Below, in pieces: positions 2,627 through 36,335 of a DNA stretch of 37,372 nt. The stretch is from a virus (Duplodnaviria; Heunggongvirae; Uroviricota; Caudoviricetes). Position 1 is the stretch's first letter. Each line of letters starts with the position of its first letter. The stretch is taken from the IMG/VR virus record IMGVR_UViG_3300031134_000639. One strand, written 5' to 3'. The notes below the pieces were generated by a model, which was not told where the DNA came from, made no database searches, and saw nothing but the letters and a program-made list of their open reading frames with translations. The position numbers and the translations under genes were made by a program.

Positions 2627-2635
2627 TGGTACAAT
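2627..2635 (+). promoter_or_regulatory. Extended -10 promoter
   Basis: TGG-TACAAT upstream of the SD GGGGAG and ATG 2660. Confidence 0.6.
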
Positions 2636-2659: not shown

Positions 2660-3268
2660 ATGAGGTCAATGACGTTTCGGCTTTTTAATGAAGTTCGTGA
2701 AGCTGTTTATTACTCTTTCAAGTTGAAGCGACGAAAGTCTAACCTGGCTAAGGTTCGTGCTGGTGTTGCTGGGTATGTTTTGGGCGATGGCACGGAGATA
2801 CCGGACTTTTATGACAACTGGCGTGACACTTCTTGGCAGGATGAGAAGCATATTTATGCTGTACGTAAGTTTAAGGGTGTCACTTACGTGTATGTTGGTG
2901 ATGAGTATCATGAGCATGACCGGTTGAGGTTTGCAGGTGTTGGCAATGATTTCTATGAGGTCACCCGCAACTGTTCTATGGACGCTAGTTTGTCTTTTGA
3001 CCAGACTTTTAATCCTGTGTTGATGTTCAGGGATCCTAATGTTTCTATCGCGGCTTCTGTTCTTTTGACTTCTGCTCCCGGGCACAGGCCTGTTAGGGCG
3101 CTGGCGAATGTGATAAGCCAGATTGGTAATGATTACAGTTTCCAGGACATGCATGATCTGTTTTATCACACTGATATTTTCGCTGAGAAGCATGGACTGT
3201 CGGACATGCCTGAGGAATATGTGAGAGTGCTTACTGCTGGTGTTAACTCTTTAGAGGACAAGCGCTAA
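2660..3268 (+). CDS. HxHD/Hx4H family paralog 1 (unknown function)
   Basis: HEHDRLRFAGV...RNC...DMHDLFYHTDIF...SDMPEEYVRVL; start moved to ATG 2660 (SD GGGGAG). Confidence 0.85.
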   Translation: MRSMTFRLFNEVREAVYYSFKLKRRKSNLAKVRAGVAGYVLGDGTEIPDFYDNWRDTSWQDEKHIYAVRKFKGVTYVYVGDEYHEHDRLRFAGVGNDFYEVTRNCSMDASLSFDQTFNPVLMFRDPNVSIAASVLLTSAPGHRPVRALANVISQIGNDYSFQDMHDLFYHTDIFAEKHGLSDMPEEYVRVLTAGVNSLEDKR

Positions 3269-3390
3269 ACGGTCTAAGACTTATTTTGTAGGAAGCTAAA
3301 AGGTGAGTTAGACTGCCATCTTAAATGCTGCTTGTGTTTTAGTTTTTGAAAGTGTAGAATGTAGTAACTGTTCGTATGAAAGGTTTTATC

Positions 3391-4047
3391 ATGGTCAATA
3401 TCAAGTTGGTTACCCCAAGCATTAGTGTAAAAGATGTGTTCAATGATTTGACGAACTATTTTGGCAACTTCTTCTTTCGGATTCGCCTTAATTCAAGCTT
3501 GACTAAAGTTAAAGCTGGTCTGAATACTTATGCCATTGGTGAAGGCCTCGAGGTTCCTGATTTTTATGATGGCTGGGGTAACGGTGTGGGACCCGTTGAG
3601 AAAAATCTCTTTTCTGTTCGCAAGTTTGATGGTGTCACATATGTTTATGCTACCGAAGATTGTCATGAGCATGACCGTTTGCGATTTGCTGGCGTAGACA
3701 AGGACTTCTATGAAGTTCGTTGGAATTGTTTGACAGGGAGCTATTATGTGGAGAGACCTATCGCACCGACTGTACCGTATAACGGCTTCTGGGTTGAGCA
3801 TAGTTTGCCTGTGGAGACATATTTTCTTGTGTCTAATGTTCCAAGTGATGATACTGTACAGTTGCTGACTTCAGCTTTGAAGAAAACTAGTTGCGAATAT
3901 AGTCTAGAGGATTTCCATAATCTGTTCTACCACACTAGCGTGTTTGCTGATGCTCATGATTTGTCAGATCTTCCTGATGAATATGTGAGGCTTCTTACCG
4001 CTGGTGTAGATTCTTTGGGTGAAGATAGAATTACATTTCTTCTTTGA
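3391..4047 (+). CDS. HxHD/Hx4H family paralog 2 (tandem duplicate of paralog 1)
   Basis: HEHDRLRFAGV...WNC...DFHNLFYHTSVF...SDLPDEYVRLL; colinear with 2660; SD GAAAGG before ATG 3391 (alternative start 3376). Confidence 0.85.
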   Translation: MVNIKLVTPSISVKDVFNDLTNYFGNFFFRIRLNSSLTKVKAGLNTYAIGEGLEVPDFYDGWGNGVGPVEKNLFSVRKFDGVTYVYATEDCHEHDRLRFAGVDKDFYEVRWNCLTGSYYVERPIAPTVPYNGFWVEHSLPVETYFLVSNVPSDDTVQLLTSALKKTSCEYSLEDFHNLFYHTSVFADAHDLSDLPDEYVRLLTAGVDSLGEDRITFLL

Positions 4048-4191
4048 CTGTAAGAATTGACATTTCAAAAGTTCATATGAATACCTGTTTTGTAGTATAC
4101 TAGGAAGTGTATGCTCATGGTAGCTTACTTTGTGTTTGCTGGTGGACGATAGTTTATCAGTGTTACACTTTAACTTGAACCTAGGATTCCT

Positions 4192-5298
4192 ATGATAGCA
4201 AAGTTTTTACACTTCCTTAAGATGAGTTGGATGCTCTCCTGGCGTCTACTTTTTGTGGACGCACTTGTCTTCCATGGTGGGCATGACACTCAGTTCCTGG
4301 TTACAGCTGTTCTGTTCTCTGGGTTCATGGTGTTTTTCCTCAACAAGACTCTGACTGCATTTCCTCTCATCCGCTTGGTTATGCGCAAACCTGTTGTTGT
4401 GTGGGCTGACGGTTTTGCTAATGAGAATGCGCCTCGTGTTGTTAAAAGTAGAATGGCGACTCCTGCGGAGGCAGCCAAGTTAGCTAACCCTGAGCCGGAG
4501 CGTATACAGTTTGTTGGCTCCGCTACCACTAATGGTTTTATGACTGGTTTTGAACCATCTGCTTTAGCGAATGTTCCTATACCTGATGCACCAAAGATGA
4601 AGGGTGTGCCTGGCGCTAGTTTAGGCGGGGAGAATGGAATGGATGAGAACGCTGTTAGCATCGGTATCGTGGGTGAACAGAACTTTGCTCGTGCGTTGAG
4701 TGTGACAAAACTTATCCACCGTTTCAATAGCATTTGGTCTGTCCCTGTGCCTGATGCTGAATTTTTCAGACCAGCGGAGTATGATGCTGACATTGACTGT
4801 GTGATAGCTACTGGTACCTGTATTTACTTAGTTGATTTGAAGCACTATAAGTCAGGTAATGTGCGTTACTACAACATAGGTGATGAACTGTATTGTGAGG
4901 ATGTTGCGACTGGTGCTCAGGTTGGTGAAACCAAAACTATGTCACGGAACATGCAGAATGCAACTGCTGCTCTGAAGCACCATTTCCCGAAAGTTGTTTT
5001 CAAACCTGTTGTTGTACTCATGCCAACTGATAAAGGTGAAGGTATTATTGACAACGTTACATGGCCTGGTCAGATTCAGGCTATGAACCTGACTCAGTTT
5101 ATCTCCCAGTTGCAGGCTGACAGGGACTTTGACTACAGCATGCCTCATGGTGGAGTGTTTGCACGCATCTCTAACCTTGCTGATTTGAAAGTAAGTCGCG
5201 GTAAGCAGAGAGAGCGAGAAGAACAAACAAGGCGTAGGCTGCGAATAGAACATGATGAGCGGTCAGCACGTTATGGCTGGGAAAAACCTAAAGAGTAA
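4192..5298 (+). CDS. Membrane-anchored NERD / PD-(D/E)xK-like nuclease domain protein
   Basis: Two N-terminal hydrophobic segments; GIVGEQNFARAL...DIDCVIATGTCIYLVDLKHYKSG matches the NERD pattern. Confidence 0.7.
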   Translation: MIAKFLHFLKMSWMLSWRLLFVDALVFHGGHDTQFLVTAVLFSGFMVFFLNKTLTAFPLIRLVMRKPVVVWADGFANENAPRVVKSRMATPAEAAKLANPEPERIQFVGSATTNGFMTGFEPSALANVPIPDAPKMKGVPGASLGGENGMDENAVSIGIVGEQNFARALSVTKLIHRFNSIWSVPVPDAEFFRPAEYDADIDCVIATGTCIYLVDLKHYKSGNVRYYNIGDELYCEDVATGAQVGETKTMSRNMQNATAALKHHFPKVVFKPVVVLMPTDKGEGIIDNVTWPGQIQAMNLTQFISQLQADRDFDYSMPHGGVFARISNLADLKVSRGKQREREEQTRRRLRIEHDERSARYGWEKPKE

Positions 5299-5301
5299 CT
5301 A

Positions 5302-6324
5302 ATGTTAGCTCATTTTTTTAAGGAAGTGCGTTACCGGTGGTCTCGTACTGGAAGGTCGGGAGGCCTGCCCTTCAGCCGCCTAGAAACGTTTGAGCTAACA
5401 GCTTGGGGTGCTTTAATTTCTTTCGCGTTTGCTGTTGTGTTGACTCGGATTCTGGTGGGCTACGAGAATATCTATGAGTCCGCCTATACTCTTCTGGTTT
5501 CGGGTGGGCTTTGCGGCATTTTTATTGGAGTGGCAGTTTACTTTTACAGGGTTGTTACCACCGGACGTTTCTTCATCCACGAAGCTGAGCGTAGAGCAGA
5601 AAAAGCGCTGCAAAAATACAGGGCTGCTGTTGTCTTAGGTCAAGACCCAGCCAAAAGGAAAGTCTGGAGACCAAAGCGAATCCTGATACGTGATTTTTGT
5701 AAAGGCGACAAAGCATATTTTTTATGGCCGGAATCTGTGTTCAGTTTTTGGAAAAAATGGGGTGTTATCCTTGTTACTGCTCATGAAAGTTTCGCTGGTG
5801 AACTGCATCCGCATGATCGTCTAAAGTTTATTGGAGTTAAAGTCCTTTGGACCAGACGCTATTATTGGGGCACAGTGCCAGTGTTATGCATGCACAATCA
5901 AATCATTAGGCCTAACCGCGATACGGTGTCTTTTAAGGAGGAAACAACGTTTTGGGGTGAGTTTAGGAAGACCCTTCAAGCTGGAGGGAATATGTTGGAT
6001 TCGGCATGTGGTCGCTCAATTGATGTTTCTGTTGAAGGGTTTGTTGGATTTGCACGTCAGTTTAGGGGTGCATGGAAAGATCATGAGGTTGACCAGCAGG
6101 CTGAGAGGGAGCTTCGTATGTTCAGGGCGAATCTGCCTGATGGCATGGGATGGTCTGATGTTCATGATTATCTTTTTCATAGGAATGTGTTCTTAGAGCG
6201 GTCTGAGTTTTCAGACATACCGTCTGACTATGTAAGGCATCTTCTGGGTGCCACCAATTTGAATGCTTTAGAGAGTCGTGTCGGGCTGCCCGGAGGGCTT
6301 CCAGCGCCCAATAATTTAGTATAG
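5302..6324 (+). CDS. HxHD/Hx4H family paralog 3, with two N-terminal TM segments
   Basis: HPHDRLKFIGV...WSDVHDYLFHRNVF...SDIPSDYVRHL; starts 3 nt after the NERD stop. Confidence 0.85.
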   Translation: MLAHFFKEVRYRWSRTGRSGGLPFSRLETFELTAWGALISFAFAVVLTRILVGYENIYESAYTLLVSGGLCGIFIGVAVYFYRVVTTGRFFIHEAERRAEKALQKYRAAVVLGQDPAKRKVWRPKRILIRDFCKGDKAYFLWPESVFSFWKKWGVILVTAHESFAGELHPHDRLKFIGVKVLWTRRYYWGTVPVLCMHNQIIRPNRDTVSFKEETTFWGEFRKTLQAGGNMLDSACGRSIDVSVEGFVGFARQFRGAWKDHEVDQQAERELRMFRANLPDGMGWSDVHDYLFHRNVFLERSEFSDIPSDYVRHLLGATNLNALESRVGLPGGLPAPNNLV

Positions 6325-6331
6325 CTTTTGT

Positions 6332-6360
6332 TTGACAGCAGACTGTAAGACTGTTATTGT
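6332..6360 (+). promoter_or_regulatory. Sigma70/SigA-type promoter for a leaderless transcript
   Basis: TTGACA-N17-TATTGT (with TGn extension), then 6 nt to ATG 6367. Confidence 0.75.
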
Positions 6361-6366
6361 TGTCAT

Positions 6367-7347
6367 ATGATAAAAACTTTTTCCGCTGCCCTGAGACAGG
6401 ACCGTGAGCGGCGTGCGGAGGCTCGCTCTAATGCGCCTACCGATGATTTTAGTTTCTATCTTCTGATGGGTATAGTGGGTGTCCTGCTCACAGCTTTCGC
6501 GTATGCGGCGCTACCTGAAGGGTACAAGCTGTATTCTTTTCTGCTTTTGTTTTTGTCTGTAGTGATCTGGCGGGCTATTGTTTGTTTCGGTTTTGTTTTC
6601 AGATCTAAATTTCGTGCTGAACTAGCTAGAATGAAAGCAGAGAAAGCTTTCTCAGAGTACAAAGCTAATGTAAAAGCCCAGAAGGACCCTGTGAGTAGGA
6701 AAGTTAGGAACCCCGGCAGAATTTTTTCTCGGTCCATTGGCATGTCTTTTAAATCTGGAGAACCTTATGTAGCTTGGCCTCTCACGGCTTTTACTTTGTG
6801 GAAAAGACGCGGCGTGATTCTTGCTACCGCAAATGAAAGTTTTGCGAGCAGCCTGCATGAACATGACAGGTTGGTGTTTATTGGTGTCAGACGAGGTCTT
6901 TTTGCCAGACTATATTATTGGTTTGAAGCTCCAAGTCTCTGTGCTGATGAAAAAGAGAAACTTGTCCTTTCTGCTATGTCTATGTATGCTAATCTAAAAC
7001 TGTCTGACTCATTCTGGATGAATTTTATGAGTACTCATCAGTGGGGCACCACAACTTTTCGCCCTGAGGGCACGAGTGGAACAAGGCTTGACTTGCCAGC
7101 TTTCATGATTCGCAACCACAACACAATGTACGCTAGCAAAAGTTATCTAGCGGAAGCAGCAGATTTGCATCAACGCCTGGAGGGTGGCACTAGTTGGGTA
7201 GACACTCATAACTTCCTTTTCCATCCTCAGACGTTCTGTGACAAGCCTGAGTTTGAGGGAGTCCCTTTTTCTTATGTGAAGCAAGTTCTTGGATGTGCAA
7301 ACTTTGCTGCGCTGAATACTTTGACTAAGGATGAGGTTTCTACTTGA
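6367..7347 (+). CDS. HxHD/Hx4H family paralog 4, with two N-terminal TM segments
   Basis: HEHDRLVFIGV...WVDTHNFLFHPQTF...EGVPFSYVKQVL; colinear with 5302. Confidence 0.85.
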   Translation: MIKTFSAALRQDRERRAEARSNAPTDDFSFYLLMGIVGVLLTAFAYAALPEGYKLYSFLLLFLSVVIWRAIVCFGFVFRSKFRAELARMKAEKAFSEYKANVKAQKDPVSRKVRNPGRIFSRSIGMSFKSGEPYVAWPLTAFTLWKRRGVILATANESFASSLHEHDRLVFIGVRRGLFARLYYWFEAPSLCADEKEKLVLSAMSMYANLKLSDSFWMNFMSTHQWGTTTFRPEGTSGTRLDLPAFMIRNHNTMYASKSYLAEAADLHQRLEGGTSWVDTHNFLFHPQTFCDKPEFEGVPFSYVKQVLGCANFAALNTLTKDEVST

Positions 7348-7380
7348 GGAGTTAGCTTGACACTTCTTTCCTGTTCTACG

Positions 7381-7432
7381 CAAAAGAGTGGTGGCTACCA
7401 ACAAATTTCTGTTGGTAGCCACCACTCTTTTG
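7381..7432. terminator. Bidirectional terminator-like inverted repeat
   Basis: Perfect 23-bp arms CAAAAGAGTGGTGGCTACCAACA, 6-nt loop, between convergent genes. Confidence 0.85.
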
Positions 7433-7435
7433 TCT

Positions 7436-7669
7436 TTAGAAGCCGTGTCGTAGTGACTTCCAGACTGCCTTAAGTCGGTTCTCGTCTGGGATAGGCTCCC
7501 AGCCCATTGTCTCTCGGAATTCAGCGTAGTCTTTCCGCTGGGCTTTACCGGGGTTCATGAAGAAGAGGAAAGGAAGAATCCACAGTGGCAGAGTAATTGT
7601 TCCAATGACGAGCATACCTGCTCTGACTACCTTTTCTAGAATGTCAGATTTGTTTTCTGAGAGGGCCAT
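7436..7669 (-). CDS. Small membrane protein
   Basis: Start moved to MALSENK (SD AGGAG); one hydrophobic segment GMLVIGTITLPLWILPFLFF. Confidence 0.75.
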   Translation of the reverse strand: MALSENKSDILEKVVRAGMLVIGTITLPLWILPFLFFMNPGKAQRKDYAEFRETMGWEPIPDENRLKAVWKSLRHGF

Positions 7670-7711
7670 AGTAATTCTCCTAATGGTTAAGCTGGGCAAT
7701 AGATTACTTAT

Positions 7712-7740
7712 AGTATAGAGTCAAACAAACATATTGTCAA
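7712..7740 (-). promoter_or_regulatory. Sigma70/SigA-type promoter
   Basis: TTGACA-N17-TATACT on the minus strand. Confidence 0.8.
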
Positions 7741-7828
7741 GCCGTTCGTGCTAAAAGCGTAAGTTTTCTTTTGTTCGGACAGTAATATGTTGTTTTCTTT
7801 TTTGCTTTGCTCTTTTTATTTTTAGAAT

Positions 7829-7835
7829 ACCGATA
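7829..7835 (+). promoter_or_regulatory. ACCGATA motif upstream of pilin 1
   Basis: One of about 10 intergenic, sense-oriented CCGAT(A/T) motifs upstream of genes. Confidence 0.55.
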
Positions 7836-7897
7836 TTCATACTAGGTGAGAATATTGCTGTGTTCTCCCTTTTTCATCGAACCTCCAAGGATAATAA

Positions 7898-8668
7898 ATG
7901 TTTTCAAAGATAAAATCGTTTCAACAACAAGAGGAAGGCTTTACTCTTATTGAGCTTCTAGTCGTAATCCTCATTATTGGTATTTTAGCTGGTATTGCTA
8001 TACCTGTTTTCTTGAACCAGCAGAAAGCTGCTATCAACGCTAGTGTCAAATCTGATGTGCGCAACACTGTGTCTAACGTAAGTTTGTTCCTAACACAGTA
8101 CCCTTCCGCTGCACCTGCTAACAACACTCAGCAGACGGGGCCGACTGTTGGCGCTAACGCTAGTACAGACCCTAAGCCAGTGATTGTTGCTAGCCGCACT
8201 GACACAACTGTTGCTGTTGCTTTCAGTTCAGGTAAGTATGATGTGGAAGGCTATAACAGTAAAACTGTTTTCAAATACAACTTCCAGTCTGAGCTAGGTA
8301 AGTATGGTACAGCTAGTATTGGCGTGGTGGATACTGCTGCTATTCCAGGTGCTACTAGTGGTGCTTCCACACCTCCAGCGGCGGCGGCAGCTACCATGAC
8401 TGCTCCTACCAAGACAAGCGATCCAGCTGGCTATATTGACACTGTTTCTTGGGGTATCCCAACAGGTTACACTGCCTCTAACGTGACCTACAACGTTACG
8501 TCCACTGGAGCTAACAAGTATAACTTCCCAGGCTTGAAAACAAACAAGTTTGAAGTTAGCAAAGATGACGTTGGCTATGGTGACACTTTTGTGACTGTAG
8601 TAGCTGTTGATAGTGCAGGGAAAGAAATTGCTCGGGCAACAGGTATGGTTCAGCTTGGATATGAATGA
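7898..8668 (+). CDS. Type IV pilin-like protein 1
   Basis: Class III signal peptide MFSKIKSFQQQEEG|FTLIELLVVILIIGILAGIAIPVFLNQQ (G-1, F1, E5); beta-rich C-terminal domain. Confidence 0.92.
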   Translation: MFSKIKSFQQQEEGFTLIELLVVILIIGILAGIAIPVFLNQQKAAINASVKSDVRNTVSNVSLFLTQYPSAAPANNTQQTGPTVGANASTDPKPVIVASRTDTTVAVAFSSGKYDVEGYNSKTVFKYNFQSELGKYGTASIGVVDTAAIPGATSGASTPPAAAAATMTAPTKTSDPAGYIDTVSWGIPTGYTASNVTYNVTSTGANKYNFPGLKTNKFEVSKDDVGYGDTFVTVVAVDSAGKEIARATGMVQLGYE

Positions 8669-8693
8669 TAGGTAGTTATTAAACGATTATCAT

Positions 8694-8744
8694 AAACAGT
8701 TGAGGGGTGCCACACAAAATTTGTGTGGCACCCCTCAACTGTTT
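8694..8744. terminator. Near-perfect 51-bp palindrome between convergent genes
   Basis: AAACAGTTGAGGGGTGCCACACAAA-A-TTTGTGTGGCACCCCTCAACTGTTT. Confidence 0.85.
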
Positions 8745-8750
8745 GTTTAG

Positions 8751-10529
8751 TTATGCTTTAGCGATACCATACATTTGGTAGGGCAGTTTTTTGTCTGAGG
8801 CCTGTGTCCAACGTGTCTCATTTAAGTGTGGTACAGGTAGAGCCTCGTACTCTCCTTGTCTGTCCGCGAACATCGGGTTCAGTGTGTTGTGAGGCAGTAG
8901 CATGTTCTTGGTGGAGAAAGTCACTCGCAGGAAGGTTCTAAGGCCCGGGATGGTCTTAAGTGGTGTTCTATGCACAGCGTAGGGGTCCATCAGATATAGA
9001 TGGCCCGGTTTTACTGTGTAGATATTCTCCTCAGATGCTTGCTTGTCAAACTCTGTGAACAGCCTCTCATGAGTGTCATCTAAGTGTCCTACGAAGAACG
9101 GCTGTAGACAAAACTCTGTTCCAGGGTTTGTTGTGAGAATGTAGGAGTGAGCGCTGACTTCTTTCTCAGTGAAAGCTCCACCCTGTAAATCATCACCGTG
9201 GAAGCCTGGGAAGCGATGGGTTTTGCCTTCCTCTATTTCACGGGTGTCGTGAGTGATGTGCGCAACCTGGCTTTCATATAGCGGGTTATGGCATTTGTCG
9301 TAAGTGAAGATGCGCTCTAGGATGCCCTGAATTGGTTTTAGCTCTGCGGGCACCATTATCTCTTGACTGTCCCACCATTTCAGAGGCATACGGAGAGTGT
9401 TCGGAATTGACTGAATCTTGTTCACGTCTGCTGTTCCCAGGTCAATGGGTAGGCGAGGGTTAGTATACTTTCTTGGCTCAAACGGTTCGGTCATGTCCCT
9501 GTATGTGGGTGAGTACGGCTGAACTTTAGGATACCATCTGTCTGGCGCTGTGATTGCTTTACCTGGTGTCAACGGAGCATCATCAAAGGTTCCTATGTCC
9601 TGTTTAGCTTTGCTTCGTTCCTGTTGTACAGCCTCTTCTGTTTTCGCTGTTGGATCTACCTCAATTTTAGCGTCTAGACCGTAGTAGTCGTAGTTCACTT
9701 CTGAGTCTGGTGCACGCAACCAGTCACGAATGTCTAGCTTGAAATTTGGCTTCTCTTGTTCAAGCATCGGGTTCAAAGTGTTGAACTCAATGGGTAGCGG
9801 AGCGTTCGCTACGGTAATACGGATGAACCCACGATGGGTGTCCTCATGGATTGTAGGTGTTCGGTGGACCATATAAGCATCCATCAGGTACAGGTGTTGG
9901 CTGATGCCTTTGAAGATGTTAACATCTTTAGCTTGTTGGTCAAAGGCCTTGAAGAAGTTAGTTATATCCTCATCGTAGTGCTTGATGAAGAAAGGCTGCA
10001 TACAGAACTCTGTGGGGTTGTTTGTTGCGATAACATATGAGTGTTCTGCAAGCAGTTTCTCTTTGAATTTCCCTCCTTGGAGGCCGTCTACATGCCAACC
10101 AGGGAACCGTTGGGTCTCTTGGGCTTTAACGAAACCGTAGTCTGTGGTTATGTGAACTTCACAGTTCTCAAACTGTTCGTTGATCATGCGTTCGTACTCT
10201 AGAACCTGCATGAGGAAAGGTTGAATGGCTTTAAGCTCCTCGGGGATGTAAGCGTTTGTTTCTCCTACAGGTTTTACAGTGAGTCGTAGGACGCGAGGTA
10301 GGTGCTCTACGGCACTGATATCAAAGAAGCCTAAGTCTACAGGTAGGCGCGGGGAAGTGTAATGGTCAAAACTGAACGGTGTTGTCAGATGTGTGTACAC
10401 TGGTGACCAAGACTGGGCTTTAGGCATCCACACGTCCCTGACCTCAACCACATCCCCAGTTGAACTTATCTCAGCGGCATCGTATTGGATGTTATCCACT
10501 GTCTTGTTATCTTCTGGTTTGTATGCCAT
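8751..10529 (-). CDS. Tandem-duplicated 2OG-Fe(II) dioxygenase-like protein
   Basis: Two homologous halves, each with HxD (H146-V-D148; H444-G-D446), a distal His (VHRTP; H222, H520) and an R-x-F-x-R-x-T strand. Confidence 0.75.
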   Translation of the reverse strand: MAYKPEDNKTVDNIQYDAAEISSTGDVVEVRDVWMPKAQSWSPVYTHLTTPFSFDHYTSPRLPVDLGFFDISAVEHLPRVLRLTVKPVGETNAYIPEELKAIQPFLMQVLEYERMINEQFENCEVHITTDYGFVKAQETQRFPGWHVDGLQGGKFKEKLLAEHSYVIATNNPTEFCMQPFFIKHYDEDITNFFKAFDQQAKDVNIFKGISQHLYLMDAYMVHRTPTIHEDTHRGFIRITVANAPLPIEFNTLNPMLEQEKPNFKLDIRDWLRAPDSEVNYDYYGLDAKIEVDPTAKTEEAVQQERSKAKQDIGTFDDAPLTPGKAITAPDRWYPKVQPYSPTYRDMTEPFEPRKYTNPRLPIDLGTADVNKIQSIPNTLRMPLKWWDSQEIMVPAELKPIQGILERIFTYDKCHNPLYESQVAHITHDTREIEEGKTHRFPGFHGDDLQGGAFTEKEVSAHSYILTTNPGTEFCLQPFFVGHLDDTHERLFTEFDKQASEENIYTVKPGHLYLMDPYAVHRTPLKTIPGLRTFLRVTFSTKNMLLPHNTLNPMFADRQGEYEALPVPHLNETRWTQASDKKLPYQMYGIAKA

Positions 10530-10591
10530 ATTTAAGGTCCCCTAAGGTTGAAGTGTCATATAAATAATCGGCTTGGGAGGAGCATATTGTG

Positions 10592-10641
10592 CATATGCGT
10601 GGGAAGGCAGATGATGTATTTCTTACCTTCCCACGCATATG
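10592..10641. terminator. Inverted repeat, probable terminator of the MinD-like gene
   Basis: 16-bp arms CATATGCGTGGGAAGG / CCTTCCCACGCATATG. Confidence 0.75.
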
Positions 10642-10644
10642 GTA

Positions 10645-11667
10645 TTATTCTTTAGTCAAAATGGATGCAACTTTTTTGATGCTTGAGTTGAACTGGTTTT
10701 TTGCTTTGTAGGCTTTAGCAAGTTCGGTAGTTACACTTGCGCGTTTAACAGCTAGCTCGGTCCCTAGTGCTGCTAAAATTGTGATTTCGCTGAAGTATTT
10801 TTCTATTAGCTCTTTACCCAAAAACTGACCTGGCAGAGTCATGTTAGCAATCAGCCCAACTTGATTTAAATTGAAGCGTCTATCCGGTAATCCGTTTAGA
10901 TCCTCTTCCAACTCTTTTTTCCATCTGAACAGATGAGGCAGAGGGTTTCTATCAAGGTCTGCTACATACAGGACTGCATCTGAAATGTTTACAATGCTAG
11001 GGAATGTTTCATCTAGATAAGTTATTCCTGTGTCAACGAAAACAAATTCGTAGTTTGCTTTCAGATTAGCGAGCATGTCTACATAGAACTGGGAGGAGAG
11101 GAGATCAGCTTTTCTGTCGCTACGTTTGGGAGATAGAACAACATCTATGTCTAATGAGTTGTCGTGAATAATGGTTTTTCTGAGAGCATGAATCGTTTTT
11201 TCATCTGAAAGGTAGTAGTTCAACATAGTTGGGGTAGCTTGGCTAACGTAATAGCTCAGCTGACCATTTCTTATGTCAGCATCGACAATTATTGCTGTTG
11301 CACCAGTTTTTCTGACAGCTGCTGCAAGAGCTAAAGCGACACTAGTTTTGCCTGTTCCCCCTTGGCTTGAAGCCAAAGTTATGATACGTCCTTCACCTTT
11401 TGACGAAAAGCCTAGACCAGCAGAAGAAGCAAAACTGTCGGTTGCAGTAGCAGAAATAAGAACGTCATCTCGGATGACTCCCTGTTCTGAGAGCAGGTCT
11501 CGTAGGGTTTCTTCTGTCTGAGTGCCTTTGTTAAGGGTCAAATGGAAACCGCCTGCTTGAACGTCAGGGTCTGTGGTTGTAATATGAATGGTGTCATTCT
11601 TTTTCAGATATGACACTCGTACGTTTTCTAGGGTAACGTATTTTTTGTTTTCGTCAGTTTTTGACAT
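10645..11667 (-). CDS. MinD/ParA/CpaE-like P-loop ATPase with an extra N-terminal domain
   Basis: IITLASSQGGTGKTSVA (deviant Walker A), IIVDAD, FVFVDTG; SD AAGGA. Confidence 0.85.
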   Translation of the reverse strand: MSKTDENKKYVTLENVRVSYLKKNDTIHITTTDPDVQAGGFHLTLNKGTQTEETLRDLLSEQGVIRDDVLISATATDSFASSAGLGFSSKGEGRIITLASSQGGTGKTSVALALAAAVRKTGATAIIVDADIRNGQLSYYVSQATPTMLNYYLSDEKTIHALRKTIIHDNSLDIDVVLSPKRSDRKADLLSSQFYVDMLANLKANYEFVFVDTGITYLDETFPSIVNISDAVLYVADLDRNPLPHLFRWKKELEEDLNGLPDRRFNLNQVGLIANMTLPGQFLGKELIEKYFSEITILAALGTELAVKRASVTTELAKAYKAKNQFNSSIKKVASILTKE

Positions 11668-11724
11668 GGTTCATCCTTAAATTGTTTGGGTCTGGTTTCC
11701 GCCAGTTCGGTTGTTACATCTATT

Positions 11725-11732
11725 GTATCGGA
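11725..11732 (-). promoter_or_regulatory. TCCGATAC motif upstream of the MinD-like gene
   Basis: Reverse complement of GTATCGGA, about 57 nt upstream of the ATG. Confidence 0.5.
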
Positions 11733-11817
11733 CTACATAGTTTCACCTCTGTTTCCATGCACGGCAAGGTCAGGAACACTTTCATGATATAGTAAGGTGA
11801 ACGGATTCGGAGGGTTT

Positions 11818-12477
11818 ATGCGTCAGAAGTATAACCAAGCAGTAGTTGGGCAGAAGGTAACTGATGCTTTAGATGCCTTCAAATATGAGTCCGGTTCTAA
11901 GCTAGCTGGCACCAAGGTGTTTGCTGGTCCTGGCAAGTCAGCTTCTAAGATCGTGTGGGCTTTACACAACTTCCAAGCTTGGGTTCAGCCTGACTCTCCA
12001 GATGCTATCTTCATAACAGTGAACTCTTCTCTAGCTGAAAAGCTACATCCTCACGACTATCTTAGATACGTTGGTATCAGACACTTCGGAAACATGTACT
12101 GGTTTCAGGTTGAAGCAGAGTGCAAACTCCTCTCTTCGGAGCGCTTTGAGATAACGGAAAGGAAACTTTTCTGGTCTCGGATGAGTTCATTTGCTGTGGA
12201 GCCTACGAAACTTGAGAGCGTGTTCGCTAGACCTTGGCTTTTAGGCAAACCAGATTCTAGTACTTTTTACTACGAGCTGATAATGTCAAGTACCAACATT
12301 CAACTTGCAAATACCAAGTTGGAGTCAAAAACTCTGTCAGGGCATAGTAGTTGGGTGGATCTTCATAATCTATACTTCCACCCTGAAGTGTTCGCTGTAG
12401 ATCAGGGTATGCCTGGTGTTCCGGAGGAGCATCTTAAGAAACTGTTTGATGTACCAACTAAGCTGATAATGACATAA
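11818..12477 (+). CDS. HxHD/Hx4H family paralog 5
   Basis: HPHDYLRYVGI...AEC...WVDLHNLYFHPEVF...PGVPEEHLKKL; TGA-TATAGT at 11785-11793 and SD GGAGG support ATG 11818. Confidence 0.85.
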   Translation: MRQKYNQAVVGQKVTDALDAFKYESGSKLAGTKVFAGPGKSASKIVWALHNFQAWVQPDSPDAIFITVNSSLAEKLHPHDYLRYVGIRHFGNMYWFQVEAECKLLSSERFEITERKLFWSRMSSFAVEPTKLESVFARPWLLGKPDSSTFYYELIMSSTNIQLANTKLESKTLSGHSSWVDLHNLYFHPEVFAVDQGMPGVPEEHLKKLFDVPTKLIMT

Positions 12478-12529
12478 AATAATCTTAGCGCTACCGAAAA
12501 CTACCTCACTATTGTGGTACCATAGTAGA

Positions 12530-13360
12530 ATGAGTTCTTACTGGCCGACTATGACACGGTTCTTTGCTATGTTGCTTGGCCCAGTTCGTGATTTTGTAGA
12601 GGCAACAAAGCAAGCTCTAGGAGACATAGTTTCCCAGTTCAAAAATCCTGGTGTCACTAAAAGGTTTTTTGCTGTTCCACTCAAAATTTTTACAACTCCA
12701 TTTGTTGCTGTTGCCTCTATGTTTGAAAGCAGAGCAAAAATTAAAGCTCATGGGGTGGTAGCTGGTCTAGACAGCTTGCATACTGAAGGCAAACATCTTC
12801 ACAAATTCTTCAGGTATTGGGCTTATCTTTTTACTCTTGATCTTCTAACTAAGAAGCGGTTCTCATGGGTTGACAAGAAGTTAAGTGTCTACGACTATGG
12901 TTGGGGAACTATGATAGCTTCTCTTCACAGAGACCAGGCTAAACTTTTTCATGAGCATGACCGCATGCAATATATCCGGGTTAAACTTTTTGGGCTAATA
13001 CCGTACTGGTTCCAGATAGAAAGAAACTGTGCTGAGTCTCCTTCTTTTACTCTTAGAGCTTGCACCACCCGTTTCTGGTGGATGCTTGCCGTGGTCCATA
13101 ACTCTAAGACGTTTGACAAAATTGATTTGTCTGACCTTGAAAAGTTTTTGTTACCTCCCGGATGGGATTCGTCTCTCACCACATGGAGTGCATCAGCGCT
13201 TAGTTTAAGGCAGACTTTAGATACTTTATCTCCAGACTACGATTGGGTTGACCTACATAACCTGTATTACCATCCAAGCGTTTTCGCTGCTGACCATGAC
13301 TTTGAGGGAATCCCAGGTGAGTATGTCCGAAAGGTACTTGGAGTACCCGAAAGACTTTAG
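12530..13360 (+). CDS. HxHD/Hx4H family paralog 6 (probably leaderless)
   Basis: HEHDRMQYIRV...RNC...WVDLHNLYYHPSVF...EGIPGEYVRKVL; TGG-TACCAT-N6-ATG 12530. Confidence 0.85.
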   Translation: MSSYWPTMTRFFAMLLGPVRDFVEATKQALGDIVSQFKNPGVTKRFFAVPLKIFTTPFVAVASMFESRAKIKAHGVVAGLDSLHTEGKHLHKFFRYWAYLFTLDLLTKKRFSWVDKKLSVYDYGWGTMIASLHRDQAKLFHEHDRMQYIRVKLFGLIPYWFQIERNCAESPSFTLRACTTRFWWMLAVVHNSKTFDKIDLSDLEKFLLPPGWDSSLTTWSASALSLRQTLDTLSPDYDWVDLHNLYYHPSVFAADHDFEGIPGEYVRKVLGVPERL

Positions 13361-13381
13361 GCTGTGTCTACTGTAGACTTC

Positions 13382-13394
13382 CGTTAGACATAGA
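13382..13394 (+). promoter_or_regulatory. CGTTAGAYATAGA motif, copy 2
   Basis: CGTTAGACATAGA-GC-ATG(13397); same spacing as the copy at 1018. Confidence 0.5.
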
Positions 13395-13396
13395 GC

Positions 13397-14221
13397 ATGA
13401 GACAGCACTATTCTACGCTTACTGGCAGCTGGGAAGATTGCAGCGCTACAATACGTAAATGCCAATATGAACATCGTAATGGTAGCCTGTCCGCTCCTGC
13501 TGTCTCTTCACCGGAGAGGGAAGCTGTTGAAGCTGACAAAGCTTCTTTCTTAGACCAAATGGTCAAACTGTGGTCACCTAAAAAGTTTGATATTCCAGAG
13601 TCTTTTTCTTTAGTCACTAGCCGCACTAAGAGTAAAGAAATTCGCGTTGCTGATGCAGGTTCAACAGCTAAACGTTGCCACAGATGCAATGTCTATGTTT
13701 CTGAGGAAGAAGTTGAAACAATGTACTCGGAAGACTACAGGTGCAGCAAATGTGGTGAAAAGCCGCCCACTGGACTTGGAGTTGACACCCCCTATGTTGT
13801 TGAAATTGACCGTGGTGAAGCTGTTTTCCTAGTTGACAAGAAAGCAGCTAAAGAACGCACTTGGTATCATGCTACAATCAAGAAGGACTGGGAAGATGGA
13901 GTCCGCTCTAACAGTGTTTATGTCCACGCTGGCTCACGTGAGGCTGCGGAAGACCGCATCAAAATTGACTGGCCCAACCAAGTATTCTTCCTGTATGAAC
14001 TTAAACTGAAGAAGAACACTAAGTTTGGTGAGAACGCTTGGGATGATAACGATTTTCCGGAGACCACACATCATCCTCTTTCTGAGACAAACTCTCCTCT
14101 TGCAGCTGACAAAGTGACCTTATATGTCAACAAGTACGAGCACCCTGGGAGCGTAAGCATGGTATCTGCCCCACGCAATTTTGATGTTGTAAAGAAATCT
14201 ACAATTACGCCAAGCTTCTAG
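13397..14221 (+). CDS. Protein with N-terminal H-C-C-H module, central CxxC...CxxC zinc finger and a possible ADP-ribosyltransferase-like C-terminal domain
   Basis: HYSTLTGSWEDCSATIRKCQYEH; CHRC...CSKC; TWYHAT...VYVHAGSREAAEDR...LYELKL. The ORF is solid; the ART assignment is tentative. Confidence 0.75.
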   Translation: MRQHYSTLTGSWEDCSATIRKCQYEHRNGSLSAPAVSSPEREAVEADKASFLDQMVKLWSPKKFDIPESFSLVTSRTKSKEIRVADAGSTAKRCHRCNVYVSEEEVETMYSEDYRCSKCGEKPPTGLGVDTPYVVEIDRGEAVFLVDKKAAKERTWYHATIKKDWEDGVRSNSVYVHAGSREAAEDRIKIDWPNQVFFLYELKLKKNTKFGENAWDDNDFPETTHHPLSETNSPLAADKVTLYVNKYEHPGSVSMVSAPRNFDVVKKSTITPSF

Positions 14222-14290
14222 CACAAGAACAATCAAACTTGATTTGTGCTATAGTTGAGATACCAACTTATTTCAACTACGGAGGCAATT

Positions 14291-15001
14291 TTGTTTGAAG
14301 GGCACGAATCGGCCTTAGCTAGAGCTAACAACTTTGCGGCAAGCTATGTCCTTGGCTCAGGTAACTTAATTACCTCAAAAAAGTATCAGTTTTGGAAACG
14401 TTTAAACCAGACCAACTCACTGAAAGAAGACGCTCATGTTTGGGCGGCAGCTAACTTAAACGTTCACAAGATTGGCAACATGTTTGCTGTGACGGTAAAG
14501 AAGAAACACGGCCTCCATGACCACGACCGTCTTAAATTTGTTGGAATCAAAAGTCTTTTTAGCACCAGATGGTATGAAGTATCCCCTAGATGCGATAAGA
14601 CAGATGTTACGCCTGTGTACATTAGCAGCGAAGTAGCTCACTACGGTTTTTGGGCTGAACTTGCAAAGCACAGCCAACGTGGGTTCAACAATGACTACTT
14701 CAGGACTGAGTCTGTTGTAACTTCAACTGAGGCTGGCTTAGAAGGCTTTGTAGGCGAAGTTAAAAAGGGAAGCGACCCTGATTATCGGGTTCGTGCTGAA
14801 GGAATGCGTAGGCTCAGCCAGCTGCTACCAGAAGGTATGGGCTGGGCTAACGTACACAACTACGTGTATCACCCAGATGTTTTCACTGAAAATACTGAGC
14901 TTGAGGGTGTGCCCATGGTTTATGTGAAGCAAATGTTTAACTTGCCAGATGATGCTCAACTTCTTGCAAGCATAAAGAGCGAACAACTGGTAGCTTCATG
15001 A
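14291..15001 (+). CDS. HxHD/Hx4H family paralog 7
   Basis: HDHDRLKFVGI...PRC...WANVHNYVYHPDVF...EGVPMVYVKQM; TGC-TATAGT at 14247-14255 and SD GGAGG support TTG 14291. Confidence 0.85.
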   Translation: MFEGHESALARANNFAASYVLGSGNLITSKKYQFWKRLNQTNSLKEDAHVWAAANLNVHKIGNMFAVTVKKKHGLHDHDRLKFVGIKSLFSTRWYEVSPRCDKTDVTPVYISSEVAHYGFWAELAKHSQRGFNNDYFRTESVVTSTEAGLEGFVGEVKKGSDPDYRVRAEGMRRLSQLLPEGMGWANVHNYVYHPDVFTENTELEGVPMVYVKQMFNLPDDAQLLASIKSEQLVAS

Positions 15002-15258
15002 AGACGATGCGTCTAATCCGTACAATTCTACTGTTCCCTATTATGTTCCCTTTGGTTGTGGCTCTTGGGTTAGGTAGAATATTGCTTCGCCGTTGGTCTG
15101 TACTTAGCAGACTAACTTTTGTATTAGCTCTAGTCGGTTCTTTCTTAATATGTATACCCTATTGGGAGAGCTTAGCTACTACAATTCATTACTCTCTTGT
15201 TTACGCTTGTCTGTTCACGTTTTCCTTTGAAATTTGGAAGAAAGCTTGTAGACTCTAA
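14998..15258 (+). CDS. Small membrane protein
   Basis: ATGA overlap with the upstream gene; about 3 hydrophobic segments. Confidence 0.75.
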   Translation: MKTMRLIRTILLFPIMFPLVVALGLGRILLRRWSVLSRLTFVLALVGSFLICIPYWESLATTIHYSLVYACLFTFSFEIWKKACRL

Positions 15259-15322
15259 ATTAGGTTAGTCATGAATCACCGATATTATTAAGGAGCCAGA
15301 TAACAAGTGAGGTGATGTTAGT

Positions 15323-15580
15323 ATGAGTAACAACGAAAAACTTAACACTAAAAAGCCGAAACGCAACATCCAGCGGTTAAGCTATTGGAATCAAATTTCA
15401 ATACCTGTAGCTATCGCATATCTAATAATAGCTGTGTTCTTCACAAGCGTAATTTTCATCAACGTAGACATGAGCGAGTCCAGCTGGGTAATTTTTGTTG
15501 GATTCCCTGTTATGGTCATCATAGAGTTCTTATTTTTGTGTATAACACTGCCGTTTATCTTCAAGCCAACTAAAAGGTAA
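15323..15580 (+). CDS. Small two-TM membrane protein
   Basis: SD GAGG; two hydrophobic segments; ACCGATA at 15278-15284. Confidence 0.75.
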   Translation: MSNNEKLNTKKPKRNIQRLSYWNQISIPVAIAYLIIAVFFTSVIFINVDMSESSWVIFVGFPVMVIIEFLFLCITLPFIFKPTKR

Positions 15581-15645
15581 CTGGTTTTCTTTAAGTTACC
15601 GATACTTCTGTAGTATGCTTGAAGTATAATCTAGCGGGAGTTTTT

Positions 15646-16662
15646 GTGCTTAAAGAATTTGGTAGAGCGAGTTTCACAGGTGAGACTCTAGAGAACCGAC
15701 CAGTTGAATTTCGTGGAGTCGCCGGTAGCGCTGTCGCTACGGTCATAAACCGGGAGAACGTTCAGGCTTTGGATGGCCTGTGGAAGAACAAAGAGTTCCG
15801 TGGATGCTATATTCTGTTAGGTCCGCGAATGCTCTCCGGAGAGTACCATTTCTATGTTGGCCTTATGGGGGATGCTACTCCAGAAGAAGGTGGCAACACG
15901 TTCGCTGGGAGGATGTTTAGTCATGGAGTTAATCCTAGAACCCGTAAAGAGTTCTGGGTTACAGCTGTACTTGTCTCAGATGAGTCTCCGGGTTTCTTTG
16001 ACAGCAGCCAGGTAAAATGGATGGAAGGTGAGCTTGACCGCTTGTTCTCCAATGTTGTCGGGACCCGACGTGTGAACATTGCTCCGACTGGGGATAGGAC
16101 CACAAAGCAGGAGGCTAGGGAAGCATGCTATCCTGCTATTGAAACTCTTCTGCGGATTGTACAGATGCTTGGTTACTCTGCGACTCAAAAGCCTGTCAAA
16201 GTTGAGGAAACTATAATACCTGACTTCATACCTAATCTTCCTGCTCCCGGTGAGATACCAGTTGAAAAACTGGCTGCTCCTGGTACTTTCCTTGATGCGC
16301 AACCTGTTGTAGCCTCTTATCTTCCTGAGGTTATTGATCATGACTACAATGTGCGATATCCTGCTGGTCTTAAAGAGTCCGACAAAGCTGAGTACGCTGA
16401 TTTCTGGATGTGGCGTCAGAGAGCTATGTACGCTGAGATAGAGTCGGGAAACCGTAACGTTACTAACTCAGGTTACATACTTGGGAACAACCTGCTTGTG
16501 ACTGTCATGAAAGAGAAACCTCGTTCATTAGATCAACTTATGAACATCCAAGGCGTAAGCAAAAATCGCAGAAAGACACTTGCGCGTTACTGGGATGACT
16601 TGGATGAAGTAATTGCTATGCATTCAAAGAAGACTGGTTGGTTCGGGCGTAAAAAGTCTTAG
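15646..16662 (+). CDS. GIY-YIG-type nuclease fused to a C-terminal HRDC-like domain
   Basis: GCYILLG...FYVG...GRMFSH...KEFW...EGEL...N; C-terminus WMWRQRA...YILGNNLL...KPRSLDQLMNIQGVS; SD GGGAG before GTG 15646. Confidence 0.7.
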   Translation: MLKEFGRASFTGETLENRPVEFRGVAGSAVATVINRENVQALDGLWKNKEFRGCYILLGPRMLSGEYHFYVGLMGDATPEEGGNTFAGRMFSHGVNPRTRKEFWVTAVLVSDESPGFFDSSQVKWMEGELDRLFSNVVGTRRVNIAPTGDRTTKQEAREACYPAIETLLRIVQMLGYSATQKPVKVEETIIPDFIPNLPAPGEIPVEKLAAPGTFLDAQPVVASYLPEVIDHDYNVRYPAGLKESDKAEYADFWMWRQRAMYAEIESGNRNVTNSGYILGNNLLVTVMKEKPRSLDQLMNIQGVSKNRRKTLARYWDDLDEVIAMHSKKTGWFGRKKS

Positions 16663-16699
16663 CCAAAGACTGACAGTATGATGTATAACCCAGGACAGC

Positions 16700-17200
16700 T
16701 TATTTTTGTATGGTTGTAGTTGATGTACAAGTTGAAACAAAACCACCTGCACGGCTAGAGTAAATTAGGCGTGTTGTGTCATTGCCTCCAGAGAAAGAAC
16801 TTCTGGGAGATGCAGCTTCAATGCAGAACCACTGTCCAGGTGCCTGACCGGAGTAAACCCCAGCGTCATAAGAATGAAGACGCGTACCTTCGGAGAAGTT
16901 GAAGTCTTTGTTGAACACACCATTGTTGGTGTTCGTAAGGCCAGTGTCTCCATCGTTTCTCCAATCCCTTTGATAATCAGGGAACACAGTGTTCGGGCGA
17001 TCAACCGCATACGTGTGATATATGGTTGCTAGGTTCTTTACATCAGATTTTAATGCTGCATCGCCAGCTTTCTTTTGCTGGTTTAAGAAAACCGGAATGG
17101 CGATAGCTGCGAGGATACCAATAATGAGAATAACGACAAGAAGCTCAATCAGGGTAAACCCGGCTTCGTCTTTGCTGAAGTTGCGGAATCTTGCGAACAT
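16700..17200 (-). CDS. Type IV pilin-like protein 2 (short, with a C-terminal Cys pair)
   Basis: MFARFRNFSKDEAG|FTLIELLVVILIIGILAAIAIPVFLNQQ; WFCIEA...STCT. Confidence 0.92.
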   Translation of the reverse strand: MFARFRNFSKDEAGFTLIELLVVILIIGILAAIAIPVFLNQQKKAGDAALKSDVKNLATIYHTYAVDRPNTVFPDYQRDWRNDGDTGLTNTNNGVFNKDFNFSEGTRLHSYDAGVYSGQAPGQWFCIEAASPRSSFSGGNDTTRLIYSSRAGGFVSTCTSTTTIQK

Positions 17201-17315
17201 GAACTATTGTTACCTTAATCTCATTGGGTTGGCTTTGGCTGCTTAGGTGCAACTAATTTATTATTGTTATGCACTTGCAAGACGGCTGTGTCCGTCTTAG
17301 AGGATCTAACATTTT

Positions 17316-17322
17316 TATCGGA
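17316..17322 (-). promoter_or_regulatory. TCCGATA motif upstream of pilin 2
   Basis: Reverse complement of TATCGGA; reads TCCGATAA on the minus strand. Confidence 0.5.
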
Positions 17323-17407
17323 CTTAAGTTTGCGACTTTCATTAGATACCTAACTAGTCTTATCAAACGTTGCTATCTATAGTTGTTCATCTTCACTAAG
17401 CGTCTAG

Positions 17408-17437
17408 TTGACAAACTATCGCATAAGACTGTATGAT
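17408..17437 (+). promoter_or_regulatory. Sigma70/SigA-type promoter
   Basis: TTGACA-N18-TATGAT. Confidence 0.7.
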
Positions 17438-17477
17438 GGGTTTACATGGCAGTTATCTTTCCTCCGGAGGTGCACTT

Positions 17478-18239
17478 TTGAAGTCTTCAAGCTTAGTAGC
17501 TTTTGAATGGACGGCACTCAGCACTACGTGTGTTGTGGCACTTGTTGTATTCTTTGCGATCATGGTCTTCTTCGTTGGCACGCCATCAAGTCCCGGCCTT
17601 GTGCCTAAGTACTCTCAGCGTTTCACTAAGAAGCTTAAGTCTGATGTGAATAAGTTCTTGAGCGATTACAGGAATGGTTCTACAGCCACAGTCGTTGTCC
17701 ACTCTCATCACTTTTTCAGGGCTAAAGATGAGCGAACAACTCTTTGGGCTGAAGAAAATCTTGTTGTAGAAAAAGCTGGTCGGTTTTTTGTTGTCAGGGT
17801 TAACGATCAAGTCGGTGTTCATGTTCACTCTCACTATCATGTAAAGTTTGTTGGCGTGCGCGCTTTCCTTAGAGTACGTTGGTTTAGGACAGATTTCAGT
17901 TGCTATGATAACCAGTTTGCAACTGCTCCTGTGAGGGATATGAAAACGCCGTTCTGGGCTTATATCCAGGATAAGGTAGAGTATTTTTCAACTCACGGTA
18001 AGGATAAGTTTGCTGGTTTTAACTGCTATCAGTGGTCTACTTCTTACATGTCTGAATATGAGCATGAAGAGAAGATTAATTTTGCTCCTAATTCAGACTG
18101 GGTTGCTCTTCATGATCTGTACTGTCATCCTGACGACATTGACCCTGGACATGAGTGGGCTGACGTACCTGTGGAATTCATTAAAAAGCTGAACAACTTG
18201 CCTGACAAGGCTTACGAGTTGTTTACGTGCAGGATCTGA
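17478..18239 (+). CDS. HxHD/Hx4H family paralog 8 (divergent), with one N-terminal TM segment
   Basis: HVHSHYHVKFVGV...FSC...PFW...WVALHDLYCHPDDI...ADVPVEFIKKL; SD GGAGG supports TTG 17478. Confidence 0.8.
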   Translation: MKSSSLVAFEWTALSTTCVVALVVFFAIMVFFVGTPSSPGLVPKYSQRFTKKLKSDVNKFLSDYRNGSTATVVVHSHHFFRAKDERTTLWAEENLVVEKAGRFFVVRVNDQVGVHVHSHYHVKFVGVRAFLRVRWFRTDFSCYDNQFATAPVRDMKTPFWAYIQDKVEYFSTHGKDKFAGFNCYQWSTSYMSEYEHEEKINFAPNSDWVALHDLYCHPDDIDPGHEWADVPVEFIKKLNNLPDKAYELFTCRI

Positions 18240-29309: not shown

Positions 29310-29338
29310 TTGACATGCTCTAATTCTTGGGTTAAAGT
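29310..29338 (+). promoter_or_regulatory. Sigma70/SigA-type promoter of rIIA
   Basis: TTGACA-N17-TAAAGT; SD AAGGAG at 29367-29372. Confidence 0.75.
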
Positions 29339-29381
29339 AGGGTTATCACTTATTCGCCCCTTATCTAAGGAGTACCAAGCT

Positions 29382-35564: not shown

Positions 35565-35608
35565 TAAAAGTTGAGGCCCACAAGTTTTCTTGTGGGCCTC
35601 AACTTTTA
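35565..35608. terminator. Bidirectional terminator-like inverted repeat
   Basis: 20-bp arms TAAAAGTTGAGGCCCACAAG, 4-nt loop, between convergent genes. Confidence 0.85.
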
Positions 35609-36277: not shown

Positions 36278-36335
36278 GTTAGTTATTATATCAGAGGTTA
36301 CACCCGCTGGCAACAGCCCGAGCAGAAAGTTTTCC

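Follow-up and report, generated by a model that had tools for sequence, protein, structure and literature searches.

An undescribed family of paralogs with four conserved histidines and one cysteine, expanded in a giant phage-like genome

Among the paralog arsenals of giant and T4-like phages, the Alt, ModA and ModB ADP-ribosyltransferases of T4 are the closest described counterpart at the level of genome organization, being tandem, strongly diverged accessory genes located in the non-structural part of the genome, among host-takeover and counter-defence genes. At the level of the domain, an analogy is offered by small structural zinc modules with mixed His/Cys ligands, such as T4 gp32 (His and three Cys), treble-clef modules and zinc-ribbon knuckles. 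The 37,372-nt stretch of DNA analyzed here (IMG/VR virus record IMGVR_UViG_3300031134_000639, Caudoviricetes; hereafter the window) encodes eight paralogs, W1-W8 in order of position (Table 1), of a previously undescribed family characterized by four histidines and one cysteine that are predicted to form a single metal site. The family shares with the T4 enzymes the tandem arrangement, the strong divergence and the genomic company, and is unlike them in sequence and fold, since the ADP-ribosyltransferases carry a catalytic R-S-E core whereas the family carries His4-Cys on a fold without a match, and in the membrane tethering of many of its members. With the zinc modules it shares a few invariant His/Cys residues within a very variable sequence and ligands drawn from a beta-hairpin region and a helix; unlike in those modules, the ligands of the family extend across 90-130 residues and form a His-rich series (HxH, C, Hx4H), and neither a profile nor a fold of the zinc-finger type is matched.

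Independent gene calls on the parent metagenome contig place all eight open reading frames (ORFs) on the + strand with the same start positions as in Table 1, and the adjacency of W1/W2, W3/W4 and W5/W6 confirms the three tandem pairs that a first-pass annotation of the window had reported along with the family itself. In the alignment of the eight sequences, six columns do not vary (H, H, C, H, H and P), with identities of 17-42% relative to the first sequence. Leave-one-out hidden Markov models (HMMs), from which each gene was removed together with its sister in order to exclude a coincidence of motifs only, recover every paralog with E of 1.5e-14 to 4.7e-34, while none of the remaining 88 ORFs (the window has 96 of 80 aa or more) scores with any of these models at E<=10. 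Recovery lies far above chance, and by this sequence criterion the eight ORFs are almost certainly true paralogs of a real family. In the maximum-likelihood tree, W1 and W2 are sisters (support 100/100, 45% identity), as are W3 and W4 (support 100/99), and the paralog branches measure 0.6-2.8 substitutions per site. The N-termini differ as originally described, a hydropathy scan separating three membrane-anchored copies from five without a transmembrane helix.

Table 1. Features of the window in order of position. dN/dS, ratio of nonsynonymous to synonymous substitution rates, calculated from orthologs in the related strain L003; RBS, ribosome-binding site.
Feature	Position	Strand	dN/dS	Details
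NrdE (class Ib ribonucleotide reductase), C-terminus	3-926	+		nrdH and nrdI precede on the parent contig
W1 extended -10	2627-2635			TGGTACAAT
W1	2660..3268	+	0.21	202 aa, soluble; HEHD...C...DMHDLFYH...MPEEYVR; upstream RBS GGGGGAG
W2	3391..4047	+	0.33	218 aa, soluble; tandem sister of W1
NERD-domain protein	4192..5298	+	0.21	hydrophobic N-terminus; Pfam NERD, E 9.6e-07
W3	5302..6324	+		340 aa, two N-terminal transmembrane helices
W4 sigma-70-type promoter (predicted)	6332..6360	+		TTGACA-17-TATTGT, upstream TG; ends 6 nt before ATG
W4	6367..7347	+	0.28	326 aa, two N-terminal transmembrane helices; tandem sister of W3
Intrinsic-terminator-like hairpin	7383..7430	+		20-bp stem; would close the W4 transcription unit
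Prepilin N_methyl gene	7898-8668	+		matches PHROG pilin families
ParA/CpaE-like ATPase	10645-11667	-		
W5 extended -10	11785-11793			TGATATAGT
W5	11818..12477	+		219 aa, soluble; RBS GGAGGG
W6 extended -10	12515-12523			TGGTACCAT; ends 6 nt before ATG
W6	12530..13360	+		276 aa, no transmembrane helix (hydropathy scan)
W7 extended -10	14247-14255			TGCTATAGT
W7	14291..15001	+		236 aa, soluble; TTG start, RBS GGAGG; modelled full-length
Prepilin N_methyl gene	16700-17200	-		matches PHROG pilin families
W8 sigma-70-type promoter (predicted)	17408..17437	+		TTGACA-18-TATGAT, 11/12, best match of the region; -10 hexamer overlaps the annotated ATG
W8	17433..18239	+		268 aa, one transmembrane helix; HVHSHYH, HxH kept, Tyr at the Asp position
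Prepilin N_methyl gene	19049-20245	-		matches PHROG pilin families
Prepilin N_methyl gene	20398-21156	-		matches PHROG pilin families
rIIA	29310-31583	+		phrog_612, E 2.7e-81
rIIB	31694-33103	+		phrog_609, E 6.4e-50; adjoins rIIA

The description of the family as unrecognised is upheld by every library searched. The best Pfam matches of the eight proteins (E 0.0076-0.21) lie far under the cut-off, and across 30 members no Pfam family is shared by more than two at E<=10. No PHROG family was found, a single fragment match (E 0.0019) being restricted to W8 and no structural PHROG being matched, and NCBIfam and PADLOC returned nothing for the window copies. A profile search of PDB sequences reached E 0.47 at best. 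Searched exhaustively with HMMER, 1.84 billion cluster representatives yielded 25 clusters matching the family at E<=1e-3, all metagenomic, eight of which are the window's own genes or near-orthologs, and a word-indexed search of 5.8 billion proteins gave six matches. No description of the family was encountered in word searches of the literature, and the resemblances to metallo-beta-lactamase, HIT triad, JAMM, LAS, HD, HEPN, DinB and deformylase that were considered were supported by no search.

Fold comparisons employed two AlphaFold2 models, the full-length W7 (predicted local distance difference test, pLDDT, 75.6; predicted template-modelling score, pTM, 0.73) and the W1 core (pLDDT 72.7, pTM 0.58). 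No significant fold emerged, the best values for W7 and W1 respectively being E 0.81 and 1.3 for Foldseek against PDB, E 0.14 and 0.34 against AFDB clusters, Z 3.9 and 2.9 in the PDB VIA-wide comparison, and template-modelling scores of at most 0.31 and 0.34 in the ESM Atlas; in BFVD, the best E was 0.095, obtained with the W7 model only, and feature and embedding searches of the ESM Atlas gave nothing usable. As judged from sequence and predicted structure, the family is previously undescribed, with no relation to a known family or fold found, and its fold is likely new.

Conservation within the family is concentrated in a small set of residues. All five His/Cys residues are kept in 27 of 29 members and the proline in 29 of 29, the four His and the Cys being conserved despite identities of 14-27%. 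An Asp or Glu two residues before the third His and an Asn or Asp one residue after it are common ([DE]xH[ND] in 25-27 of 29 members), and further shared features are a strand region rich in aromatic residues (W, F.GV, WF) and, at the C-terminus, a [VILM]PxEY[VIL][KR] motif containing the invariant Pro. The residue following HxH behaves differently, as Asp is conserved in the window's own clade only and is replaced by T, N, S, Q, Y, H or A in distant members. The originally proposed signature HxHD...C...Hx4H consequently stands for HxH, C and Hx4H and not for the constancy of Asp, and W8, whose HVHSHYH motif was correctly read and taken to replace HxHD, in fact retains HxH as H-S-H, with Tyr in place of the Asp. 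HxH and Cys are separated by 18-34 residues, usually 21-22, and Cys and the third His by a poorly conserved insert of 59-97 residues, within a conserved core of about 145-200 residues.

Both models present the same order of elements, namely a hairpin, the HxH loop, a second hairpin, the Cys just after the fourth strand, the insert at low confidence, and four to five short helices with the last two His where two helices meet; prediction confidence is highest in the motif regions. A degenerate tandem paralog of the same genome, located outside the window (L095 8909-9694), has all five residues replaced (Q, G, W, Y and N) and keeps the C-terminal motif. This joint loss, which is consistent with a single metal or catalytic site, provides the strongest indication at hand that the five residues function as a unit. 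One metal-binding site made of the four His and the Cys is thus predicted with reasonable confidence, which preserves the earlier suggestion of a metal or catalytic site as far as the His and Cys residues are concerned and removes the Asp from it.

Taken together, these observations lead to a composite reading, held tentatively and a little short of an even chance, in which each protein is a metal-clamped, probably zinc-bearing, cytoplasmic or membrane-tethered scaffold, expressed from host-type promoters and serving an accessory host-takeover or counter-defence role of its own. In this proposal, the core would start with two beta-hairpins carrying HxH in the loop between them and would continue, beyond the Cys and the variable insert, into a short-helix bundle bearing [DE]xH[ND]xxxH and the Pro, so that the metal, most likely Zn(II), would clamp the beta-sheet to the helical part. 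This scaffold would be constant among the copies, whose differences would lie in the insert and the N-terminal region. The five window copies without a transmembrane helix also lack an export signal, and the forms with two transmembrane helices are positively charged on both flanks in the hydropathy scan, which suggests a cytoplasmic location for the domain; in the infected cell, W1, W2, W5, W6 and W7 would be free there, and W3, W4, W8 and most of the distant members would be anchored to the inner side of the membrane through one or two helices at the N-terminus.

The main rival is that the family consists of metal-dependent hydrolases or transferases in which a catalytic mono- or binuclear centre is built from HxH, Cys, Hx4H and the semi-conserved acidic and Asn/Asp residues, the paralogs being isozymes for different substrates such as nucleic acids, defence signals or molecules of the host envelope. 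With five invariant His/Cys residues and [DE]xH[ND], the family has more than the four ligands of a structural zinc site, the window clade has an Asp after HxH, the tandem copy that lost all five residues recalls pseudo-enzyme paralogs, and the neighbours of family genes are conflict enzymes (ADP-ribosyltransferases, PARP, SIR2, the NERD nuclease, Tpt1, Thg1 and PTH2). Set against this are the failure of metallo-beta-lactamase, cupin, JAMM, LAS, HIT, amidohydrolase and deformylase to appear in any profile or fold search, the lack of a further invariant polar residue, the loss of the Asp outside one clade, and a predicted core of four strands and short helices, which is small for an enzyme. A metalloenzyme is accordingly rated unlikely, while still a serious contender.

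The metallo-beta-lactamases deserve separate mention, as the HxHD...C...H...H of the window clade superficially recalls the ligand order HxHxDH...H...C/D...H of that superfamily. Unlike in those enzymes, the Asp of the family is not conserved (HxH[D/T/N/S/Q/Y/H/A]), the predicted core has about four strands as opposed to an alpha-beta/beta-alpha sandwich of more than 200 residues, and no metallo-beta-lactamase was matched in Pfam, where the Lactamase_B profile found nothing in the family, or in PDB or AFDB.

Several observations weigh against the composite reading of a zinc-clamped scaffold and its parts. The fold-search models (pLDDT 73-76) draw on only 28-30 sequences, and model error could hide a known fold, so that the fold is rated as no more than likely to be new. 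The argument from joint loss rests on one degenerate paralog. Five fixed His/Cys residues with the semi-conserved [DE]xH[ND] are more than structural zinc needs and equally fit an enzyme active site. Some members with a single transmembrane helix have neutral or slightly negative flanking charges, which leaves their topology ambiguous. Evolution of the insert outpaces that of the scaffold by a factor of only about 1.5, which lends weak support to a variable specificity region, and promoter-like sites in the region are not above chance (26 found versus 23.4 expected), so that only their placement is informative.

The eight window copies are part of a larger set. In the same genome, three further tandem copies (locus L093) lie beside gyrB/gyrA, a SocA_Panacea gene and a Ter/TelA/PRTase cluster, two (L095) near Dam, Tpt1, a metallophosphatase, HD, PTH2 and a second rIIA-like gene, and two (L097) adjoin SIR2. 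The figure of eight proposed for the family therefore holds for the window and not for the genome, which contains at least 15 copies, at least seven of them elsewhere. The distant members P0033, P0034 and P0038 occur on other contigs of 25-37 kb, where their neighbours include ADPrib_exo_Tox, PARP, a CCA-adding enzyme, Thg1, PTH2 and GmrSD_C. Strain L003 carries an extra copy (P0025, 6545-7279) upstream of its W1 ortholog that is not in the window and has no W3 ortholog, its NERD gene (8834-9943) being directly followed by the W4 ortholog, which indicates that copy number turns over between close relatives.

The family is extremely rare and has been observed so far in a few huge phage-like genomes from metagenomes only. 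A tblastn search of 50,697 GenBank phage records gave no match, 20 kb of the window found no match among GenBank phages by megablast, and single-protein scans of genome and viral contigs, including two IMG/VR pattern scans, revealed no relatives. Likewise, six-frame searches run with no positive control returned no match, either in a single Curtobacterium genome or in a sample of 301 genomes from the order to which it belongs.

Ortholog comparison with strain L003 gives no support to the diversifying selection originally suggested for the expansion. Family dN/dS values of 0.21-0.33 reflect purifying selection, somewhat relaxed relative to three neighbouring non-family genes (0.04-0.11), and there is no gene-wide diversifying selection. 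Within the proteins, orthologs differ by 0.244 per site across the insert and by 0.154-0.167 elsewhere. Divergence between the window strain and L003 is greatest in NERD, with 73% amino acid identity and a synonymous divergence (dS) of 0.84. The long paralog branches indicate that the expansion is old and that each copy has been kept, and individual retention under purifying selection suggests a target or job of its own for each; the family expanded long ago by tandem duplication, with the copies since retained individually.

The sequences upstream of the genes suggest transcription by the host machinery. Five of the eight genes have an extended -10 element (TGnTAnnnT) in the 80 nt that precede them, compared with about 1.1 expected from the window's own frequency, and the candidate promoters of W4 and W8 match TTGACA-N17/18-TATAAT at 10-11 of 12 positions. 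The elements of W4 and W6 end so close to the ATG (6 nt) that leaderless mRNAs are predicted. The host RNA polymerase would thus read the genes from housekeeping-type, partly leaderless promoters, a promoter type that suggests early expression. In W8, the -10 hexamer lies over the annotated ATG and translation of the ortholog P0010 starts about 17 residues further on, so the annotated start codon is probably mis-set and the true one may be located downstream. W3 starts 4 nt past the NERD stop codon, and the two genes are probably co-transcribed, with W3 co-translated with NERD.

The replicon appears to be a giant phage-like genome, as indicated by the adjoining rIIA and rIIB genes, which by sequence match are the clearest phage hallmark of the window, and by the occurrence of window genes on metagenome contigs of 625-885 kb. 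The DNA is present in phyllosphere, plant and straw metagenomes from nine studies. NrdE reaches a best identity of 59% to any species genome searched, its top matches being mostly Actinomycetota with many Rhizobiales close behind; this affinity and the leaderless promoters point to an actinobacterial host. An origin from Saccharibacteria or the candidate phyla radiation, considered on account of a small genome, the pilins and an actinobacterial-like NrdE, was dropped after the rIIA/rIIB matches and the plant-metagenome and giant-element context.

Across four independent loci, family copies neighbour genes of the conflict type (ADP-ribosyltransferases, PARP, SIR2, RNA-repair enzymes and rIIA/rIIB), a setting with the character of biological conflict or host takeover. 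From this context, an effector role in host takeover or counter-defence is possible and is advanced with caution. The furthest-reaching version, a new fold with a new His4-Cys metal centre in a 15-member set of cytoplasmic or membrane-tethered enzymes or inhibitors, carried by giant phages of plant-surface Actinobacteria and each directed against a different host process or defence, is unlikely to hold in full.

Also present in the window are four N_methyl prepilin genes and a ParA/CpaE-like ATPase, an unusual combination for a phage to carry, as well as a surface protein containing FN3 and Excalibur domains, and the family could accordingly comprise membrane-anchored assembly or regulatory factors for remodelling pili or the cell surface. 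The interspersion of the paralogs with the prepilin and ATPase genes and the membrane anchoring of many members speak in favour, as do weak fold rows for the minor pseudopilins GspK (Z 3.5), XcpW (Z 3.0) and PilX (Z 2.3). These Z-scores are at noise and tied with unrelated rows; unlike type IV pilins and pseudopilins, all eight proteins lack the N_methyl prepilin motif at E<=1, compared with E 5e-09 to 1.3e-07 in the four neighbours, and no other member matches it. Additionally, the other seven genome copies and the distant members lie in loci without pilin genes (gyrase, Ter cluster, SIR2, Dam, Tpt1, ADP-ribosyltransferases and PARP), and the five soluble window copies carry no export signal, rendering such a role quite improbable.

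A metal-free Cys-His dyad or triad, as in thiol proteases, acyl- or amidotransferases and deamidases, with the remaining His positioning the substrate, would account for a single invariant Cys accompanied by several invariant His, and numerous effectors of phages and bacteria belong to the Cys-His enzymes. None of the searches returned a fold or profile of the papain-like, NlpC/P60, transglutaminase or LRAT-like kind, four invariant His are more than such a site needs, and in both models the Cys follows a beta-strand and does not start a helix, so this possibility is very improbable. Giant phages do carry many paralogous structural and internal proteins, yet the idea that the family is virion-associated or belongs to an intracellular compartment, with a metal site for stability only and no effector role, is the most doubtful of all, given promoters that are host-type, partly leaderless and not late-type, no structural PHROG match, a location in accessory regions and not in a morphogenesis module, and a copy number that varies between close relatives.

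Giant phages are for the most part genetic dark matter, of which the family is an unusually tractable piece. Five invariant metal-type ligands provide a sharp signature, the soluble versions should express easily, and the degenerate paralog is a natural "dead" control. Because no relative exists in any family or structure library searched, a structure would probably add both a new fold and a new metal-site geometry. If the furthest-reaching version were true, the His4-Cys set would be a new phage effector class with no cellular counterpart; the individual keeping of at least 15 copies in one genome implies many separate host targets, and the family could shed light on host takeover or cell defence by the very large phages of plant-associated Actinobacteria. 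If it is an ordinary structural zinc module on miscellaneous proteins, the gain would be smaller, namely one new domain entry.

Three ORFs of the window contain a micro-motif resembling the C-terminal motif of the family. In the otherwise unrelated 246-aa protein at 18212-18952 (-), ADGLPEEYVRALT at residues 34-46 nearly copies it, and hhalign aligns this protein with the family over 13 columns at 62% identity and 8% probability; in 26947-27669 (-) and 35606-36337 (-), the motif is looser and found only with a relaxed pattern. Family membership of these ORFs was rejected, since hhalign covers 13-15 residues at probabilities of 1-8%, and the micro-motif at 18212-18952 could reflect either coincidence or a short docking motif common to this protein and the family.

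Other features of the locus complete the description. The second rIIA-like gene of the genome (HATPase_c_3) lies at L095 14909-16912 (-). Within the window, the 592-aa protein at 8751-10529 (-) is matched by phrog_1843, a family of unknown function, in two separate stretches (E 6e-36), has no Pfam match, and fits an internal duplication on account of the double match. Between this gene and the prepilin gene at 7898-8668 (+), a perfect hairpin with a 20-bp stem and T-runs on both strands (8696-8742) looks like a bidirectional terminator.

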